In this document: in pieces, positions 52,312 through 63,700 of the stretch
How the letters are laid out: each line of letters starts with the position of its first letter
Numbering within the stretch: the first letter of the stretch is position 1
Origin: Kondoa subrosea
Lineage: Eukaryota
NCBI GenBank assembly: GCA_039545335.1
Contig: BCIN01000004.1
Coordinates: 1,478,925 to 1,542,924, forward strand
Length of the DNA: 64,000 bases
Reading direction: 5' to 3'
Notes under the pieces: generated by a model
Databases searched by the model: none
Seen by the model: the letters and a program-made list of their open reading frames with translations, nothing else
Told to the model about the DNA's origin: nothing
Translations under genes and position numbers: made by a program

Positions 52312-55008
52312 TTACAGTGCATCAAAGTTAAGCACAGCTTGGCGCTAAATAACGAGAGATCAGCAAAAGACCTGTTATATTACTTGTGAGCTGACCTTCT
52401 TCCTCTCTACTTCATCTTCGCGCTATTGATCACAATAAGCAATCAATCCAACACGATACGAAACAATTCGCACCTTCTCCTTAACATGCAAGACGAAAAC
52501 CGTTATAGCCAAGATCAAGATCGTACCCAAAACAGTCGACATCACTCCAGGTACCCAATCACCAGGATGCAAGAACAATTCTCTTGTCCAACTTCCCGGA
52601 TCATTGCTTCCTTGAGGTTGGAAAGGTAGAATCAACACTTGAGAATTAGGGATCAAACCTTCTAAATTCGTGTAATGTCGATCTTGATGTCTCGTGGAGC
52701 CAACAAACAAGTTTTCGACGTAATTATTCGTTCTTCCTAAACCGAAGAAGGAGTAAGGTGTTAAGAGGGAAAGATAAGAAGTTTGTGGGATCTGGGCAAC
52801 TTGAGTAGCTCGACGAACACCTGATGAGTCGAAAACGGTGAATTTGACCGAGGCGCCTGAATAGCTGACACCGTAGGGCTAAGACGAACTATCAGCCGAC
52901 TTCTTTTTATACAGAGACAAACTGACGTGATACTTCTCTGTGCTAATGCCCTGGGGCGGACAGAGTCCATCGCAAGCTCCATTAGCCACTGTGTAACAAT
53001 TGGTAGCTGTTAATGAATGTAATTTCAATAACGCTAAAAATTGCGCACCTAGCGTTTTCATAAAGAAAGCATCGTTGAAGTAATTGTTCTTGATAAAGTT
53101 GATCTTGCGTGAAATTCCTCCTGAGCTACCATCACGCTGAACCATGATATCCAGAGATCCCTATCACACAGAACCCATCAATCTTTGAATATGCCTAACC
53201 TCTTTGTCGACTCACATCCTCATCAATATCCAAGAAACTTGCTTGCCGAGCGTCTTTAATGTTGTTCAGTGCATCAGCACCTTTGACAACTTTCTCAAAT
53301 CTCCTTCTTCCATTTTTCCCACAACCGCTGTATTTCTCTTCACAAGGTAAACTTTTCAAAAGACTGACGGAACCAGATGAAGCTGTTGAACTTGAAGAAG
53401 AGAGGACGAGCAGGTCTGGGAACCCATCTTGGTTGTAGTCACCGATTTTGATGGAGATAGGTAAATTGCCTTGAAACGATTTGTCTTGCAAGATGAAGTG
53501 ATCTAGACCGGGAAGAATAGAACTTAACGGAAACCGAGCAAAAGCCTGATGAGATCACGTCAGTGCTGTCTTGATCGTCACCAAAGGAAAGAAAGCCAAC
53601 CTTGTTCGAGGTATTATCTGTTAGATCAAACTTGAAATTAGGGTCAGCTTCGCATAAATCGTTGGCATCTCGACATGGTCCTCGGTCGATTGGTCCAGGC
53701 GTACAAAGAGGGATTTGTTCGTTATAAGCGATATTGATGTAACAATCTGAAGTGCCAGAGCTGCAGGAAGGGAAAACCATGTCGAGAGTTCCATCACGGT
53801 CTGAACACACCTAAGAATTACTCGTTTGACCTTGACTATAGACTATAGATACTGACCTATATCTGCGAAAGTAACTTGACCGCTTCCTTTCGGTAATCGG
53901 CCAGACTGAGCAAAGACGAAACCCAATTCCTTCTTATTCTGCCATATTTGATATGAAAAGCGATTAGAATCGCTGGGATCGACACATGTAAGAAACAAGT
54001 CTGCAAGAAAACTTGAACAAAATCGTTTAGCATTCAGTTACAAGCCTTACCTGCCAGGCAATCACCGTCCAGATCGATAAAAGCGTTACTATGCGGATTT
54101 GCAAGCTTGCAATCTACAGCGTTCATATCTAGAGGTGGACCTGAGCTGCCTCAGGAAAATTAGACTGCTTCTGTAGCTATTCAAGGCTTGAACTCACACT
54201 TCAAACAAGGTATCGTTCCGCTGAGCAGATATCACGTTCTTCCATAACTGAATACGCGGGTTGTCACCCGTTGACATGCCTAAAAGATCTGCCTTCATAT
54301 CGCCATTCGTATCCAAGACCATAGGTTGGACAGGACTCCCATCCGGTAATTCTACAGGAGTATCTGTCTGAGAAGTAAGCAGTTGCAGATCATGGAGAGC
54401 ATCATTACCTACCAAAAGTTGCTTCCCCTAGACCTTTATAGAAGTGCATCTTCAGAATCTGATCGTCTGACCACCAACCGCCGTTTGGATTAGCTTGAGA
54501 CATGAGTAACAGATCCAGTCTTCCATCGTAATTGAAGTCTCCTGGTACTACATTGACGATCTTGAGGTTATCAGGCGCTTGTATAGCTGGGGCAGAGGAG
54601 ATCTTGAAGGTGTATGAATCTGTCTTCCAGCATGAGTTCTCGCAAACTGGCTCACAGACTTGTCTCGCCTTTATCCCAGAGCCATACTTGTAGACTTCTC
54701 TGCTCCGAGCTGAGTATAAACAAGTCCAATCTATCCTTGCACGAAAGTCAATGCACACTTCTTTTGCCTCGACAACGCGCGTAAGAAGGCGCATACAATT
54801 GATTGCCTTCTACATCTCCAACAGCTGCAACCATTCCATTCGCATGATCTAATCCTAGAGCGCCTGCATTGACCAGTCCTTCGAAAGTGAATCTCTGAGG
54901 TTTGCCAAGTAGCGGCCAATCTAAACCAAACAGTGCATGACTGGGTTGTGATAGAGCTAAGAGTATCACGCTCAGCAAGCTCGTGGGTATCAGGCGGAAG
55001 TCGAGCAT
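52312..55008 (-). CDS. ITFG1: FG-GAP repeat type-I membrane protein, ITFG1/LINKIN (T-cell immunomodulatory protein) homolog
   Basis: Signal peptide; VVPGDFNYDGRLDLL, DTNGDMKADLLG, HSNAFIDLDGDCLADL, ADIDRDGTLD, GDYNQDGFPDLL, FGLGRTNNYVE, IPNSQ; TM then KEKREDEVER..NFDAL*. Confidence 0.9.
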
Positions 55009-55200
55009 GGGGAATACGGTTGTTATGTAAAGGGCTTTGTCGCAGAGATCATTCAGGGCCATGATGGTCTTACACAAGAAGAACATTGGGCATGCGCTGA
55101 CAATAGCAGTGCACTAGAGAACTCGATCGTTCATACCATTTTCCATCTTTCCCTATCATCTTCATGACAGGTTCTTGCTGCGCTCTACGATCCCGCACAC

Positions 55201-57100: not shown

Positions 57101-58664
57101 ATGCCTAGTCCATGTTCTATAAGAAATCTATGCTTCGCCTCTTTTTTAGTCTCTGCTCAAGCTCATAATTGGCTAACAAAGTCAGTATATCCATTCTGGA
57201 ACTACTCAAAACATTGACTGGCTTCCGATATTCAACAGCCCGAAAGCGAGAGCTGGCTTATTCGGTGAAATCGGAGTAGAGGACAATTGCGAAAACGACA
57301 ACACAGATGTTCCCGATGGCAATACGTATCAAAGAGGTCAACAGATTGAAGCAACCTGGACTTACAATAGTGAGTTTATGAAAGTGATGGCCTGCGTGTT
57401 GCACTGATTACGATTCCTCTTTAGATCATTGTTAGTCTCGACTCTAATGGACCACTGCTGGATTAATGATGAATATTGGTAGGGAACGGGTTCTCCAGAT
57501 TTTCGATAGTCCCTGCCGGCCGTAAGTGCCTAAAGCAAATCTCATAGGTTATGCTGATCTAGTTTTGCAGAGGAAACGGACAAGGATGCTTTCCATGATC
57601 CCAAGAATGTCAGTCAGGCTCCATAATAGTCTGTAAGACTCGTTTCAACAATTACGATGCAGTTTGTCAAGATTTCGTGCATGTCTCAAAATTGCGGAGG
57701 AAGAAGACTAGGTCTTGATGGACCGCAATGTAAGCTCACTATTCGCCCCTTTAGCTCTTAAGCTGATTGGATTTGAGACAGTCGATTACTATGGACCTTA
57801 CAATCTTCCAGCGCAATCTGGGATCCCGCAAGACAATTCTGAGCCAGACCTCGCTTGTCGAACGAATATTACAATACCTGCACTGGCGGATGGGAGCTAT
57901 GTTCTTCAATGGCTAATGTATGGAGTGCATGTAAGTCTACGTACTACATAGTCTCTACGGTGAGCTGAAGGCTAGCAAAAAAAGGATTCGTATGGTGTTG
58001 TTGATGAGACATTACCGCTCTTCCGAAATTGCGCGAATGTGGGTGATATTCGAATAGAGTGTTCAATTCTTATTCGTTGGACAGATCAAGATTAGCGGCG
58101 GTAGCTCAGTCCAGACGAAGGAGTCTGATGGCTGCGCATTCGTAAGTGTTCGCTGCCCATCGCTACCTCATACTGACGAAAGCTGATAGGAATGGGAAGG
58201 CGGTGATCGAGTAATTCAATTAGAATTGCTAGTGATATCGCTGATGATTGCAACAGGCTTTGAGCGATGCAACAGATGTAGGCAAGATTACCAGTTTGAA
58301 ACCCGACGAATGCGGCTACTGGCTCTTCAACTCCATCAACGCTTCAGCGGGCTATTACATGCCCAAAGGACTGGCTGGTCCGGATGGGAAAACTGCAGCT
58401 CAAGATCCTACAGTATTGCGTCACGGTCAACCTCAAGAAGTCATCAATTGTGGAGGTCAAGTAGGAGCAAATTCTTCTGGCAAGCCATCACCAGTAGCAG
58501 TAGCTATCTCTAATGAAGATCAAGGTTCGGAATCAACAAGTACAGTCGTAGTGAAGGAAACTTCGACTACTCAGCCTGATCAACAGAAGTTGGTCAAGCA
58601 GTGTAAGAAAGATCATATAGTAAAGCGATACGTGAGGATACTTTGGAAGAGGAAGAGACGTTGA
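57101..58664 (+). CDS. Secreted histidine-brace, LPMO-like copper protein (unassigned family), about 10 exons
   Basis: Signal peptide ending SAQA then His22 (HNWLTNPKAR); YQRGQQIEATW.YNNHWNGFSRFSIVP; ITIPALADGSYVLQWLMYG; LFRNCANIKISGG; Cys-containing C-terminal extension. Confidence 0.75.
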
Positions 58665-59156
58665 TGAAAGCAATACCTGTAGTGTGGCACTTACTGTACT
58701 GCAGTCCAGTGTTTATTGTCAATATTGACCTGTACATGTACGACGAGAGGGCTTTTTTCAAAGAGCTTCGAGAGCCCGATACTTTAGTATTGCTGCATAC
58801 TCTAGCGGGGCCTCTACTTTGTTTCTACCCTTGCACTTCTTTCTATGTCGATCAAGAATTTTAACAAGTTGTTTTGCTCGCCTTTCTTGCCTTTCGAATG
58901 CTGTCACAGTGCATTGACTTTCGAATATAAGCCGGGTCTTCATGCCTTATATGTCTCCGCCTTACCTTCATGAAACTTTGAGGCGCTTTCCATTCTTACG
59001 TAAGCGAGGTCTGAGTGCTGAATCTTAAATTCTCCCTTTTTGCTTTCACTCTTGCCTCTCTACCGTCACTTACCTCCTACAGTCTTGTTTGACGTTGCTG
59101 TAAGTCGAATTGCAGTCAAAGTCGAGCCTGTGACTGATTTCGACTTAGCAGGCCTG

Positions 59157-60551
59157 ATGCTGCGACTTTCTAGCGAAATTCTTCAGCTCATAGCTGAGAA
59201 TCTTGAAGGTCATCGAACGGACAGTCTTGCAACTCTTGGACACTTTTCAAGAGTTAGTACCTTGTGCAGAAACGTCGCGCTTCCACTTCTTTACCGCGGT
59301 CAGTAACAATTTTGCATGGCAAGCTTGTTCTGATCGATCTTTGCAGACATCTCAGCCTCAAAGCTCGCTTCTCCTAAACTGCTGCGGACTCTACTTCATC
59401 GACCTGAATACGGGAGATTAGTGAAGGCTGTCGCGTAAGGAGTCGGATGCACCGCAGTACTACGATATCTAATACTATTGCAATCAGTTGGGTGCTAGGA
59501 CCTGCAGATGCAATTGGCAGCTTTTGGACCATGTCAGCTGAAAAGGAAAGCCTGCTCAAGAGCAACGTTGTCGATCCGGCTCAGATCTCTCTAGCAATTC
59601 TCCGACACTGTCCCAACATCGTCAGAATTGGCTTCTTCCTGTCTCCACCGGGTCAGCCTGGATACACTGGAGAAGCTCATGCCAATCTTTCGTCTGAGCT
59701 CTGCCGGATGCCAGCGATCAGATCGATCAAAGGCGTCAGTATCATGGCGCTAGGCTATCAGCAAGCTCCTACTATCTCTCATCTCTATTTCTTCCTCTGT
59801 GCTCTGCCGAATCTCAATCAGTTGAACTTCAAAAATGTTCTCTTACCGCACTGTGATGCTCAATCGCCTTGGTATTTACCTCCTGCTCAGCTCACCAAGC
59901 TAGACATCGATTTTAGCGCCGTCGTTAGTTCCGGAAGCTTGACTCATCTTCTGGCCAACGCAGCCAGCACTCTCGATCATTTGGTAATCACTGGTCTTCT
60001 AATTTCGCCTTTGGATCTTCTCACTGCATTCACTGTCGGTGCATACACTTCTGAAAGGCTTCGATTCCCAAACTTGAAAACCTTTCAAGCAAATCACTTG
60101 GCAATGTCTATGTGGGCCGCAATGGATTGGCTTCAATTGCTAAACACTTTTCCTAATCTTCAAAGTTTGGCACTCATGTTCAATTGTATTGTGAGTTGGC
60201 CTTTTCCCATGAAGCAGAATATCGCGTTATTCATAAGATATTCAAAAGTTTGGCGTCTACCCGAACTATCTTCAACCTTTGGCAACAGCTCTTTGTGAAG
60301 CTCGTTGTGGTCCAACTCTTCGATGCTTGGGTATCAAGACTAATTCGCCCCTTTCGAGCAGTACTCTTTCCTCCATTTTCAGCAGCGCTCGTCAATGCCC
60401 TCAATTAAAACGATTGTTTCTTCAAGCTACAACCTACAGCAAGGACGAATTGATTCAGTTGTGGTACGATTCGGGCCTAGGAACTTGGGATGAAAATCAG
60501 GAGGTGCAGTATGCTGGACAGGTTTTCAGAGCTGAATTAGCTGCACTGTAA
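59157..60551 (+). CDS. F-box protein with LRR-like C-terminal repeats
   Basis: MLRLSSEILQLIAENL...FSRVSTLCRNVALPLLYR..LLRTL..RPEYGRLVK; repeats LPNLNQLNF, FPNLKTF, FPNLQSLAL, CPQLKRLFL. Confidence 0.75.
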
Positions 60552-60787: not shown

Positions 60788-63700
60788 TTAGATGGGTGCG
60801 TTACGAACAAAGGACAAAGATCCTAGACAGAACCCTACTAGCTTGCCTATCCGTTCTGTTTCACGATCTTGTTCCGCCGAGAGGATGCGCAGAGCTTCAA
60901 TAGCTTGCTTGTCATCTAGCAGTGCTTCACCTTGAACGCGAAGAAAGACAGCGAGAACGGATTGAACAGCTTCGAAATCTTTATGCGAGCGGAGACGAGC
61001 TGTGAGTGCGTCGATAAAAGTAGAGAGATGATCAATGCTGAGCGAGCGCAACTCGAGATCAAGACTCGATGGCGGGAGAGCCAACAGCTGTGTGAAGAAG
61101 TTCTCATCTGTGAGAATTAATCAGTTTGAGATCGTTCTCAATATGTTGCATTAGCTTACAATCACCACCTTGTGCTTCGCTGCGCAAAGCTTGCACGACA
61201 TCGCTGTCTACATTGAGGGATGAAAAACCGACTCGAGAATCGGCTTGCATGTCTTCTTTGCTTGAGCCAGTAGTCAGGTCGAATCGCTGTTCCGTGCCTG
61301 GTAGAGAGGGAAGGAAGAATGGTGCGTTTTCGGGCGCTTTAGGTGCTTCTTTTGGTTTGTTGCGAGCCTGCATCGCTGTTATGAGTGGTCTCGCATTCAA
61401 CGTGTCCGAACTCACTCGTATCGTATCGAGATTCAACAAAGTCTGCCATTTTGTCCGTGGCAAAAGCGAAAGTGAGATCAAGCCATTAGAAAGTTGTTCT
61501 GAGCCAGAAGGTAAATCAAGAGCAGGTGCATCTTCTTCCAAATCAGAAATGTCTATCCACTCATCAGTGATCTACCACGCTCGAGTCACGAAGAGGTTTA
61601 CCTTCTTCGTCATCATCCTCGCCTTGTATAGTCGGTAAAGCTAATTCTGGTATTTCATCTTCCTGCGCAAAAGTCTTGAACGACACTTCAGTCAATTGAG
61701 CCCGATTTGCCCTGAATGTCGCTCAATTGCAGTCCCAGCTGTATACAGACGATGGCTTACCATAAGAAAACACCCATCTTATCAACATGTGCCGTAGCTA
61801 GAAAGTCGCCAGTAGGTGAGAAACTCAAGCTCACTGCTGTACTTGGTGTTCTGAATGCGTCAATAAGTCGACCGGTAGGTAAGTCGAAAGTCCTGATGAC
61901 AGAGTCGGATGATGAGACGACAAGCCAACGAGAATCAGCGGAAAAGGCCTGTAGATTGGATGAGCTCTTCTAATGGAAAAACACATTGCTTTACTGACAA
62001 GATCGAGGATTCGACCGCGGAAAGCATTGAGTTCTCTGATCGTCCGCCGTGTTTCGATATCTACGATTCGGACGACCATGTCTTCGCAAGTGACAGCTAA
62101 TAGGTTGTTATCTCTGTTGAGTAGCATAGAAGTGATGCCCGCCGGCAGTGAGTGAGGTTTCTGAATGAGTTTGGTTGTATGAAAGTCGAAGAACTGTCAT
62201 GAGACTTCAATTTCCGAACCTTACTGATAGTTGATTCAGGCGCTCACAAATAGATTCCCAGCTAAAGTAGAAACAACAAGACTTTTGTTGAGCGCATCGA
62301 GCACTATACCGGTTATATGCGAATCTCTCGAAAGATTTTGGACGTCCGGTAAAGTGAATGTCCGCCTTCTGATACCGGATTGCATGTTCCAGAGACCAAT
62401 TTCAGGCGAGTTAGCGAATCCAGCGAGGCCAAAATTCCCACAAGCAGAAATGCAGATCGCCTGTTCGTCCAACAAAAACATCAATCGAGTGACAATCTCA
62501 CTTATGATGTGATGAAACGAACAGTAGCGTTCCCAGCTTCACCACTCTTATCTAATGCATTCTTCCCACTCCCGCTCTTCTTGGACTTTGTATCCATATT
62601 GGAGAAATTGTAATCGCCTTTCCTCTTGTTTGCAGTGGACCAACTTCTAGCCGTTCCTTCGCCTTGATGAGTAGTAAGCATATCATCCCAGTCCCTACTT
62701 CTAGCTTCCGAAAACGATAAAGAAGTAATAGGTGGAAACCGATGTGCAAAAGAAGAAGATTTAACTTTTTTCTTTGTACTTGCTAATTCGAAAGATCTGG
62801 AATCTCTAACGATTGAAGTAGATCTTAAAGCTTGATCACCTTCTCCACCAGCGGTTAAAAGAGTTTTCCCATCTTTACCAAAATATCTAACAAGACAAGG
62901 TGGTGCTTGATGACCTGATCTTTCTCTTAACAATCTGGCTGGAGTAGTAGGTGAATCAAAAATCCATTGACGTAAAGCGTTGTCTGAACCGGAAGTGACC
63001 ATGATTGGTTGACCAGGTAAGAATTGAACGCTACCAACTGGTGATGCATGAGCTTTCATTGTATGTAGCAATCGACCTGGAATCAGATCATCTTCTGGAC
63101 CTGTATCCAAATCCCAAAGAGCTATTGATCCATCGGAAGAAGCTGTTGCTAGAGTATGTGCGAGGTTATCGGTACGGAAGGAAATGGAAGTGATACCGTC
63201 TGGAGTAACTGTATTCTGGGATGCAGAAGGAGTGAAGTCCATCTTGAGGTGAAGAAGAGTTTCGCCCAAGCGAATGTCTTTGACAATGATATCGCCTGTT
63301 GTATATCCTACTGCTACTACATCTACAGCTGGTGATTGGGCAAGAGAAGTGATTGACGCTTTGTCCAGTTCAGCTTCGTATGTATGTATAAGAGAACTAG
63401 TCGAAGCGAGTCAGCCTATGTTCTGCTGTATTTGATCGGAACATACCAAGTTTGAATGTTCCACAAAGCAAGAGCGCCTTCTCTAGAGCTAACTAGAACT
63501 TTGTTGAGATAGGTAGCGGGATGTATGACTCCATTTGCGGTGAAACCAGAAGGGAAAGTAATTGTCGTATGTAACTCTTTGAGCATCCCAAGCGTGAGAA
63601 AAGTAGATAAGAACTCGGCTAAAGATGGACTCACCACCACTCTCTATATCCCAAATCCACATTTCTTCCCCTGAAGCATCCATAGCGAGCATTTTATCTC

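Follow-up and report, generated by a model that had tools for sequence, protein, structure and literature searches.

The window analysed here, 64,000 nt of the 18.9-Mb Kondoa subrosea genome (27 contigs), carries a gene built of short exons, and its product is predicted to be a secreted His-brace protein. Both a family profile and the structural model of a relative (P0002) point to the fold of lytic polysaccharide monooxygenases (LPMOs) with no clean fit to the characterised families, in agreement with the original prediction, which had been made by splicing the exons by hand. All sequence fragments quoted there are present, and the splicing holds: 11 exons are separated by 10 introns of 46-58 nt, all of them GT..AG, and the reading frame stays open for 349 aa (Table 1). 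Judged by its sequence and by that of its homologues, the gene is real; the splice model is based on homology. The spliced product is 56% identical over 285 aa to P0002, a 336-aa protein encoded on a 1,362-nt contig that we take to be a transcript, and all exon junctions are gap-free in this comparison.

Table 1. Features of the gene, in positions of the window
Feature	Position	Strand	Basis
Exon 1, including the start codon	57101-57180	+	Splice model
Predicted 21-aa signal peptide, Ala at -3 and -1	57101-57163	+	Rule of thumb
His22, predicted mature His1 and putative first brace ligand (CAT)	57164-57166	+	His in 35 of 35 alignment rows; structural alignments begin at the equivalent residue
Exon 2: conserved Pro..Arg, first Cys, Arg-Gly-Gln strand, first Asn of Asn-Asn-His	57239-57369	+	Splice model, alignment
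Exon 3, 6-nt micro-exon with His72 (CAT 57427-57429), putative second brace ligand	57425-57430	+	Splice model; register with His60 of AA11 4MAH
Exon 4: Gly-Phe-x-Arg strand	57483-57521	+	Splice model, alignment
Exon 5	57571-57608	+	Splice model
Exon 6: two conserved Cys	57663-57729	+	Splice model, alignment
Exon 7: clade-specific aromatic-rich loop insertion, Cys, Gly-x-Tyr-x-Leu-Gln-Trp strand, His170	57782-57930	+	Splice model
Exon 8: Pro181 (58015-58017), axial Phe183 (58021-58023), Cys186	57985-58038	+	Splice model, alignment
Exon 9: last core strand, then first portion of the domain's C-terminal part	58085-58141	+	Splice model, P0002 model
Exon 10: conserved Gly-Gly-Asp	58190-58210	+	Splice model, alignment
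Exon 11: end of the catalytic domain (about aa 280), then tail; stop codon 58662-58664	58257-58664	+	Splice model

The micro-exon is read as coding because in one paralogue (L004) the His2 motif lies inside a single long exon. It is frame-neutral, and if it were skipped, the product would lack the second brace His. The axial Phe183 stands three residues N-terminal to Cys186, and Pro181 two residues N-terminal to Phe183. Behind the domain, exon 11 encodes a tail rich in Ser and Thr (58470-58664), whose only Cys precedes a basic end; similar endings occur in many relatives. In one AA9 enzyme, according to a section of PMC10990093, a Cys in the tail drives dimer formation.

By rule of thumb, the signal region combines a hydrophobic stretch with an Ala-x-Ala site ahead of His22, and cleavage after Ala21 would expose His22 as the first mature residue, as had been foreseen. 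The early His motif recurs in 94 of 108 relatives, where the residue before it is always Ala, Gly or Ser. A hydropathy scan found no hydrophobic C-terminal anchor, the top 19-residue value of the mature chain being 0.83.

Single-exon pieces gave nothing above noise against Pfam (no family for four of the five pieces, and one weak Bindin match) and no match in a word-indexed protein search; nor was there any phage match. In a protein-cluster atlas, exon 7 led to a cluster with LPMO_10 on 16% of it, and P0002 to a Zoopagomycota cluster at 0.91. The genes around the locus lie at 52423-55113 (minus strand), 59022-60551 (plus) and 60788-63410 (minus); Pfam assigns ITFG1/FG-GAP on one side and UTP21 on the other, while the gene just downstream, without a Pfam match, looks F-box/leucine-rich-like by eye. 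The ITFG1-like and UTP21 neighbours give no hint of function.

Paralogues and the Asn-Asn-His family

Genome searches with exon 7 and with exon 2 each returned six places, namely the gene itself and five on contig C1, where two of the paralogues stand in tandem, 2.2 kb apart. By spliced alignment, the beginning of all five looks like a signal peptide, and each retains His1, the Cys set and the Pro two residues before the axial residue; the axial residue is Tyr in every one of them, as against Phe in the gene under study. One paralogue (L003) retains His1 and Tyr and has Arg (CGT) at the His2 position, which points either to a copy that naturally lacks the brace or to an error in the sequence; the codon lies at about 1934-1936 on the minus strand, on contig C1 near 2.849 Mb. 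Across the aligned domain, the number of introns varies from 5 to 13 among the paralogues. Several intron places in L002-L006 are shifted by only a few bases relative to those of 57101-58664.

Beyond this genome, a profile of the N-terminal half retrieved 45 proteins at E<=0.001 among 1.84 billion. Names were sought for 30 of them, and nine come from named organisms: two Pythium species, Paraphysoderma (two proteins), Allomyces, Catenaria, Coemansia, Neoconidiobolus and Rhizophlyctis rosea. The family thereby ranges over oomycetes, chytrids, Blastocladiomycota and Zoopagomycota. Kinship with early-diverging fungi, as proposed from the sequence alone, is borne out; the red algal relatives proposed alongside did not appear, neither red algae nor named Dikarya being among the named matches of these narrow searches. 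The strong representation of oomycetes had been overlooked. When a Pythium oligandrum member was used as the query, 52 proteins were found, all the named ones from oomycetes; one of them, from Phytophthora infestans, bears the name 'putative lytic polysaccharide monooxygenase 9'.

In an alignment of the gene, its five paralogues and 29 full-length relatives (35 rows; fragments were left out), mature His1 is invariant and His2 is present in 34 rows. Asn directly precedes His2 in all 35, and a second Asn stands one residue further upstream in 29, a motif by which we refer to the family as Asn-Asn-His. The axial residue is aromatic throughout (Tyr in 23 rows, Phe in 11, Trp in one). The 52 oomycete proteins show the same pattern, with His2 in 51 and an axial Phe in 36 or Tyr in 16. 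Phe183 had been viewed as an AA10-like trait of this protein; however, all paralogues and the nearest relatives carry Tyr, and the gene is the sole Phe member of its 10-row clade.

The replacement by Pro of the Gln or Glu usually found two residues before the axial aromatic was described correctly, yet the lack of Gln/Glu is a property of the family and not of this gene: either residue occupies that position in only 2 of the 35 rows and 3 of the 52 oomycete proteins. Glu recurs elsewhere: 11 of 35 rows have it behind the first Cys, and 35 of the 52 oomycete proteins have it three residues before the axial residue, where the gene has Leu. By sequence, we found in neither the 35-row nor the 52-protein alignment a family-wide Glu/Gln column near the copper site that would be an obvious substitute.

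The match of the gene to this family exceeds chance. On a profile of 22 relatives outside its own clade it reaches 140 bits, as compared with a maximum of 6.5 bits for 200 shuffles and 11.7 bits for 460 open pieces taken from six loci of AA9, the latter a lenient control, as it consists of exon pieces. A tree of these 35 rows, built without an outgroup, places the gene as sister to P0002 (94/95) with an ordinary branch length, and the two fall within an 8-row clade that holds all six paralogues.

Some relatives carry additional modules. In P0004 (417 aa), a close relative, the C-terminus is extended by a further domain of about 150 aa in which Trp-containing motifs recur; it may be a lectin and could hint at the substrate, and Pfam gave no match for it at E 0.1. 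In P0027 and several P. oligandrum members, a small Cys-rich module follows a linker and is possibly a carbohydrate-binding module.

Fold, copper site and possible function

P0002, of the Tyr type, was folded as a stand-in for the gene product (mean pLDDT 70, pTM 0.71; low pLDDT in the aromatic-rich loop of exon 7), and its model shows the immunoglobulin-like beta-sandwich typical of LPMOs. Foldseek, one of the checks that had been suggested, ranked LPMOs first for this model with no family clear of the others, and rows 1-22 of a wide structure search are all LPMO-fold copper proteins. The best structural match is AfAA11B (Z 11.1, rmsd 3.2, 162 residues aligned, 18% identity), and the structural alignments gave Z scores of 9.8 for AA15, 9.6 for AA9, 9.4 for AA10, 9.0 for AA13 and 8.8 for X325; the corresponding values in the wide search were 10.4 for AA11, 9.8 for AA15, 8.9 for X325, 7.7 for AA14 and 7.5 for AA16. 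With Z of 9-11 and 14-20% identity to AA11, AA15, AA10 and AA9 overall, the model appears roughly equally distant from these four, none of them being clearly nearest. As the fold is at least as near to AA11 and AA15 as to AA10, the link drawn from Phe183 to AA10 is not supported at the structural level either.

Searched against solved structures, a 33-row family profile gave 35 matches at E<=10, of which 34 are LPMOs. The AA11 structure 4MAH was matched along the domain (E=3.9e-8), with His1, His60 and Tyr140 in register; with half profiles, no solved relative came below E 0.19. The Cys-bearing C-terminal stretch, previously described as an extension, belongs to the catalytic domain, because the P0002 model can be aligned with AA11 and with AA9 as far as residue 274-277.

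The family is probably a distinct, unnamed one among LPMOs, and on balance we lean, by a modest degree, towards the gene product being an active, secreted mono-copper LPMO that belongs to it, as the sequence and the stand-in model suggest. Once the signal peptide is removed after Ala21, the beta-sandwich would carry one copper at its surface, coordinated by His22 and His72 and with Phe183 beneath; after reduction of the copper, a glycosidic bond would be oxidised and broken with the help of H2O2 or O2. The sections of PMC10472438 cited here state that the Gln/Glu is structurally kept in >96% of AA9, AA10 and AA11 LPMOs, and that shortening it to Asn/Asp in NcAA9C leaves minimal product. We hypothesise that in the Asn-Asn-His family the near-invariant Asn pair beside His2 would hold the peroxide in place of Gln/Glu. 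It provides the sole near-invariant polar residues beside the brace, and its first Asn aligns with an Ala of AA11 in the profile alignment.

Several observations weaken the reading as an active LPMO: the Gln/Glu is missing, the model is that of a stand-in, one paralogue lacks His2, and there are precedents of His-brace proteins without polysaccharide activity (PMC10952591 and PMC13353379, in excerpt). The protein might accordingly combine the LPMO fold and copper site with another task, as an H2O2-producing oxidase or as a copper-binding protein serving other secreted enzymes, such as the AA9s of the same genome. We consider this unlikely, although it is the most serious competitor. The non-conservation of the second-sphere residue in both alignments would fit it, as would the reports that some AA16 are H2O2-producing oxidases (part of PMC13353379), the match of LaX325 to the P0002 model (Z 8.9) and the presence in the genome of at least seven AA9 loci above the Pfam cut-off that an H2O2 donor could serve. 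However, the family retains the axial aromatic without exception, the tail has no hydrophobic anchor, and the Pfam BIM1-like profile matches only one of 33 members, below its cut-off. The tandem expansion and prey-induced expression of members in Pythium, described below, likewise favour a wall-attacking enzyme, without being proof.

If the protein is indeed an active LPMO, its substrate may be a polysaccharide of microbial cell walls (beta-glucan, cellulose or chitin), a tentative guess that falls somewhat short of an even chance and derives from the expression of P. oligandrum members on oomycete prey. The role could then be remodelling of the organism's own wall or attack on the walls of other microbes.

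The AA9 label on oomycete and chytrid members

The family is not unseen, since some of its members are already in print and in databases as AA9, a circumstance that the original prediction had missed. AA9 names stand on members in GenBank and UniRef, and 14 of the 52 oomycete relatives have a precomputed Pfam AA9 match. AWM99266.1 of Rhizophlyctis rosea, deposited as 'lytic polysaccharide monooxygenase 9', is a family member, and six R. rosea genes form a separate clade among CAZy-listed AA9, as described in a portion of PMC6690862. For the mycoparasite P. oligandrum, 16 'AA9' genes in two tandem arrays were reported with a dbCAN cut-off of 1e-3 (PMC7720654, in part). By eye, 15 of the 16 entries in Table S2 of that source carry the Asn-Asn-His motif, the exception being PyolAA9-3, and the sequence of PyolAA9-2 is that of P0044. 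Three motif carriers, PyolAA9-1, -2 and -4, are described in the same source as up-regulated on oomycete prey. The words 'histidine' and 'copper' are absent from the main text of PMC7720654, and four of the qPCR primers it gives had no match among our collected relatives.

The AA9 label of these P. oligandrum members is due to the loose dbCAN cut-off. The set appears to mix families, as PyolAA9-3 has the look of a different LPMO type, presumably an AA16-like one. In a literature search confined mostly to journals outside subscription, we found no paper that names the family or assays a member.

These names raise the question of whether the matter is one of nomenclature, the group being a far-diverged subfamily of AA9 (or AA11) with ordinary activity on cellulose (or chitin). 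The deposited name, the separate R. rosea clade and the precomputed Pfam matches would agree with this, and the domain does have a C-terminal extension of the AA9/AA11 type; in addition, His170 aligns with the His of the corresponding AA9 strand, as seen for P0002. Yet an equivalent of His170 exists in only 5 of the 35 rows. Of 33 members, 11 have a Pfam AA9 match at E<=1, and just one of the 29 scored passes the cut-off (29.8 versus 27.8 bits), P0002 reaching 19.6 bits on residues 150-203. The genome-wide Pfam AA9 search produced 16 matches, all outside the six paralogue loci, and AA9 structures match the family profile mostly in the strands of its C-terminal half. With the Pythium labels themselves stemming from the 1e-3 cut-off, we hold a mere naming issue to be distinctly improbable. 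It is scarcely credible that the gene is a drifting, weakly functional paralogue whose Phe and other differences reflect decay, despite its being the sole Phe member of its clade and having a paralogue without His2, given an open frame across 10 canonical introns, an ordinary branch length next to P0002 and the frequency of Phe elsewhere in the family.

A wider version of the preferred reading, that of an active LPMO of the Asn-Asn-His family, places the family outside AA9-AA17, with a Gln/Glu-free copper site that relies on Asn-Asn-His in their stead and has natural Tyr, Phe and Trp variants, cleaving microbial wall glycans and shared by oomycetes, chytrids, Blastocladiomycota, Zoopagomycota and Kondoa subrosea. 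We put it forward as a possibility on the doubtful side. If it were true, most 'AA9 cellulases' of mycoparasitic Pythium, and perhaps of other oomycetes, would belong to the Asn-Asn-His family. Published counts would also be corrected: the P. oligandrum 'AA9' expansion, which has been associated with mycoparasitism in this biocontrol agent, consists mostly of this family, and the cellulase function ascribed to it is for that reason an assumption.

To our knowledge, every LPMO family added so far has come with a new substrate or role. The present one would test whether a His brace works without the Gln/Glu held to be necessary for handling H2O2; for comparison, the K. subrosea genome supplies natural Phe and Tyr versions as well as a paralogue that lacks His2.

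Comparison with known LPMO families

The gene does not carry the tested membership features of AA9, AA10, AA11, AA15 or X325. AA17 is represented among the structural matches by a Phytophthora sojae oxidoreductase (8S71) with a Z of only 6.1, no other AA17 entry being recognised there, and the AA18 enzyme, in connection with which one paper cites Santos 2025, has a different fold. DUF7492 (PF24320) gave weak matches in 10 of 33 members, confined to their C-terminal strands and, where scored, all below the cut-off (best 22 versus 27); a precomputed PF24320 match exists in 2 of the 52 oomycete relatives. Among groups described earlier, the LPMO16 of Voshol et al. is an uncharacterised one that occurs in fungi, oomycetes and animals (PMC6950343, in excerpt); LPMO14 and LPMO16 have been described, and 2% of the profiles remained unplaced in the tree, according to parts of PMC5320794 and PMC6950343.

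X325/Bim1 proteins, which had been offered as a non-catalytic model for the gene product, share His1 and the fold (LaX325, 6IBH; 127 residues aligned). In contrast to them, the gene product keeps the axial aromatic, its domain is larger, and its tail is basic and unanchored, so that an X325/Bim1-type protein is not supported. X325 uses Asp as a fourth ligand and Bim1 has a GPI anchor (sections of PMC10952591); the conserved Asp columns of the Asn-Asn-His family fall in motifs common to AA9 turns.

AA10 (ScLPMO10C, 4OY7; CBP21, 2BEM) has the axial Phe in common with the gene, at a Z of 8.9-9.4 and 12-14% identity. Pfam LPMO_10 matches none of 33 family members and has no match in the genome, in a search whose control matched in 1 of 14. 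In some AA10s, as the excerpted text of PMC10472438 has it, the Glu is supplied from another backbone position, which offers a precedent for a second-sphere residue located elsewhere. AA9 reaches a Z of 8.4-9.6 with 12-18% identity by structure, and of its His-Gln-Tyr second sphere the gene has His170, the Gln and the Tyr being replaced by Pro and Phe, respectively. AA15 (TdAA15A, 5MSZ) aligns at a Z of 9.8 over 137 residues with 20% identity and is tied with AA11 in the wide search; its alignment stops at model residue 199 and thus leaves out the C-terminal extension, and 5MSZ is not among the 35 profile matches at E<=10. AA15 enzymes have a Glu two residues before the axial aromatic, where the gene has Pro181.

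The highest-scoring structural matches are those to AA11 (AoAA11, 4MAH/4MAI; AfAA11B, 9HDG/9EXJ; AfAA11A, 7P3U), with Z scores of 10.0-11.1 over 147-164 aligned residues; AA11 is also the sole family that the sequence profile matches domain-long in one stretch, and it has the same C-terminal extension. In solved AA11 structures the second sphere comprises Tyr, Glu and Asn (PMC12186267, in part). Identity is only 18-20%, however, and the gene has Phe183 and Pro181 where AA11 has its axial Tyr and the Glu two residues before it, while the Asn-Asn-His of the family takes the place of Ala-Val-His in AA11.
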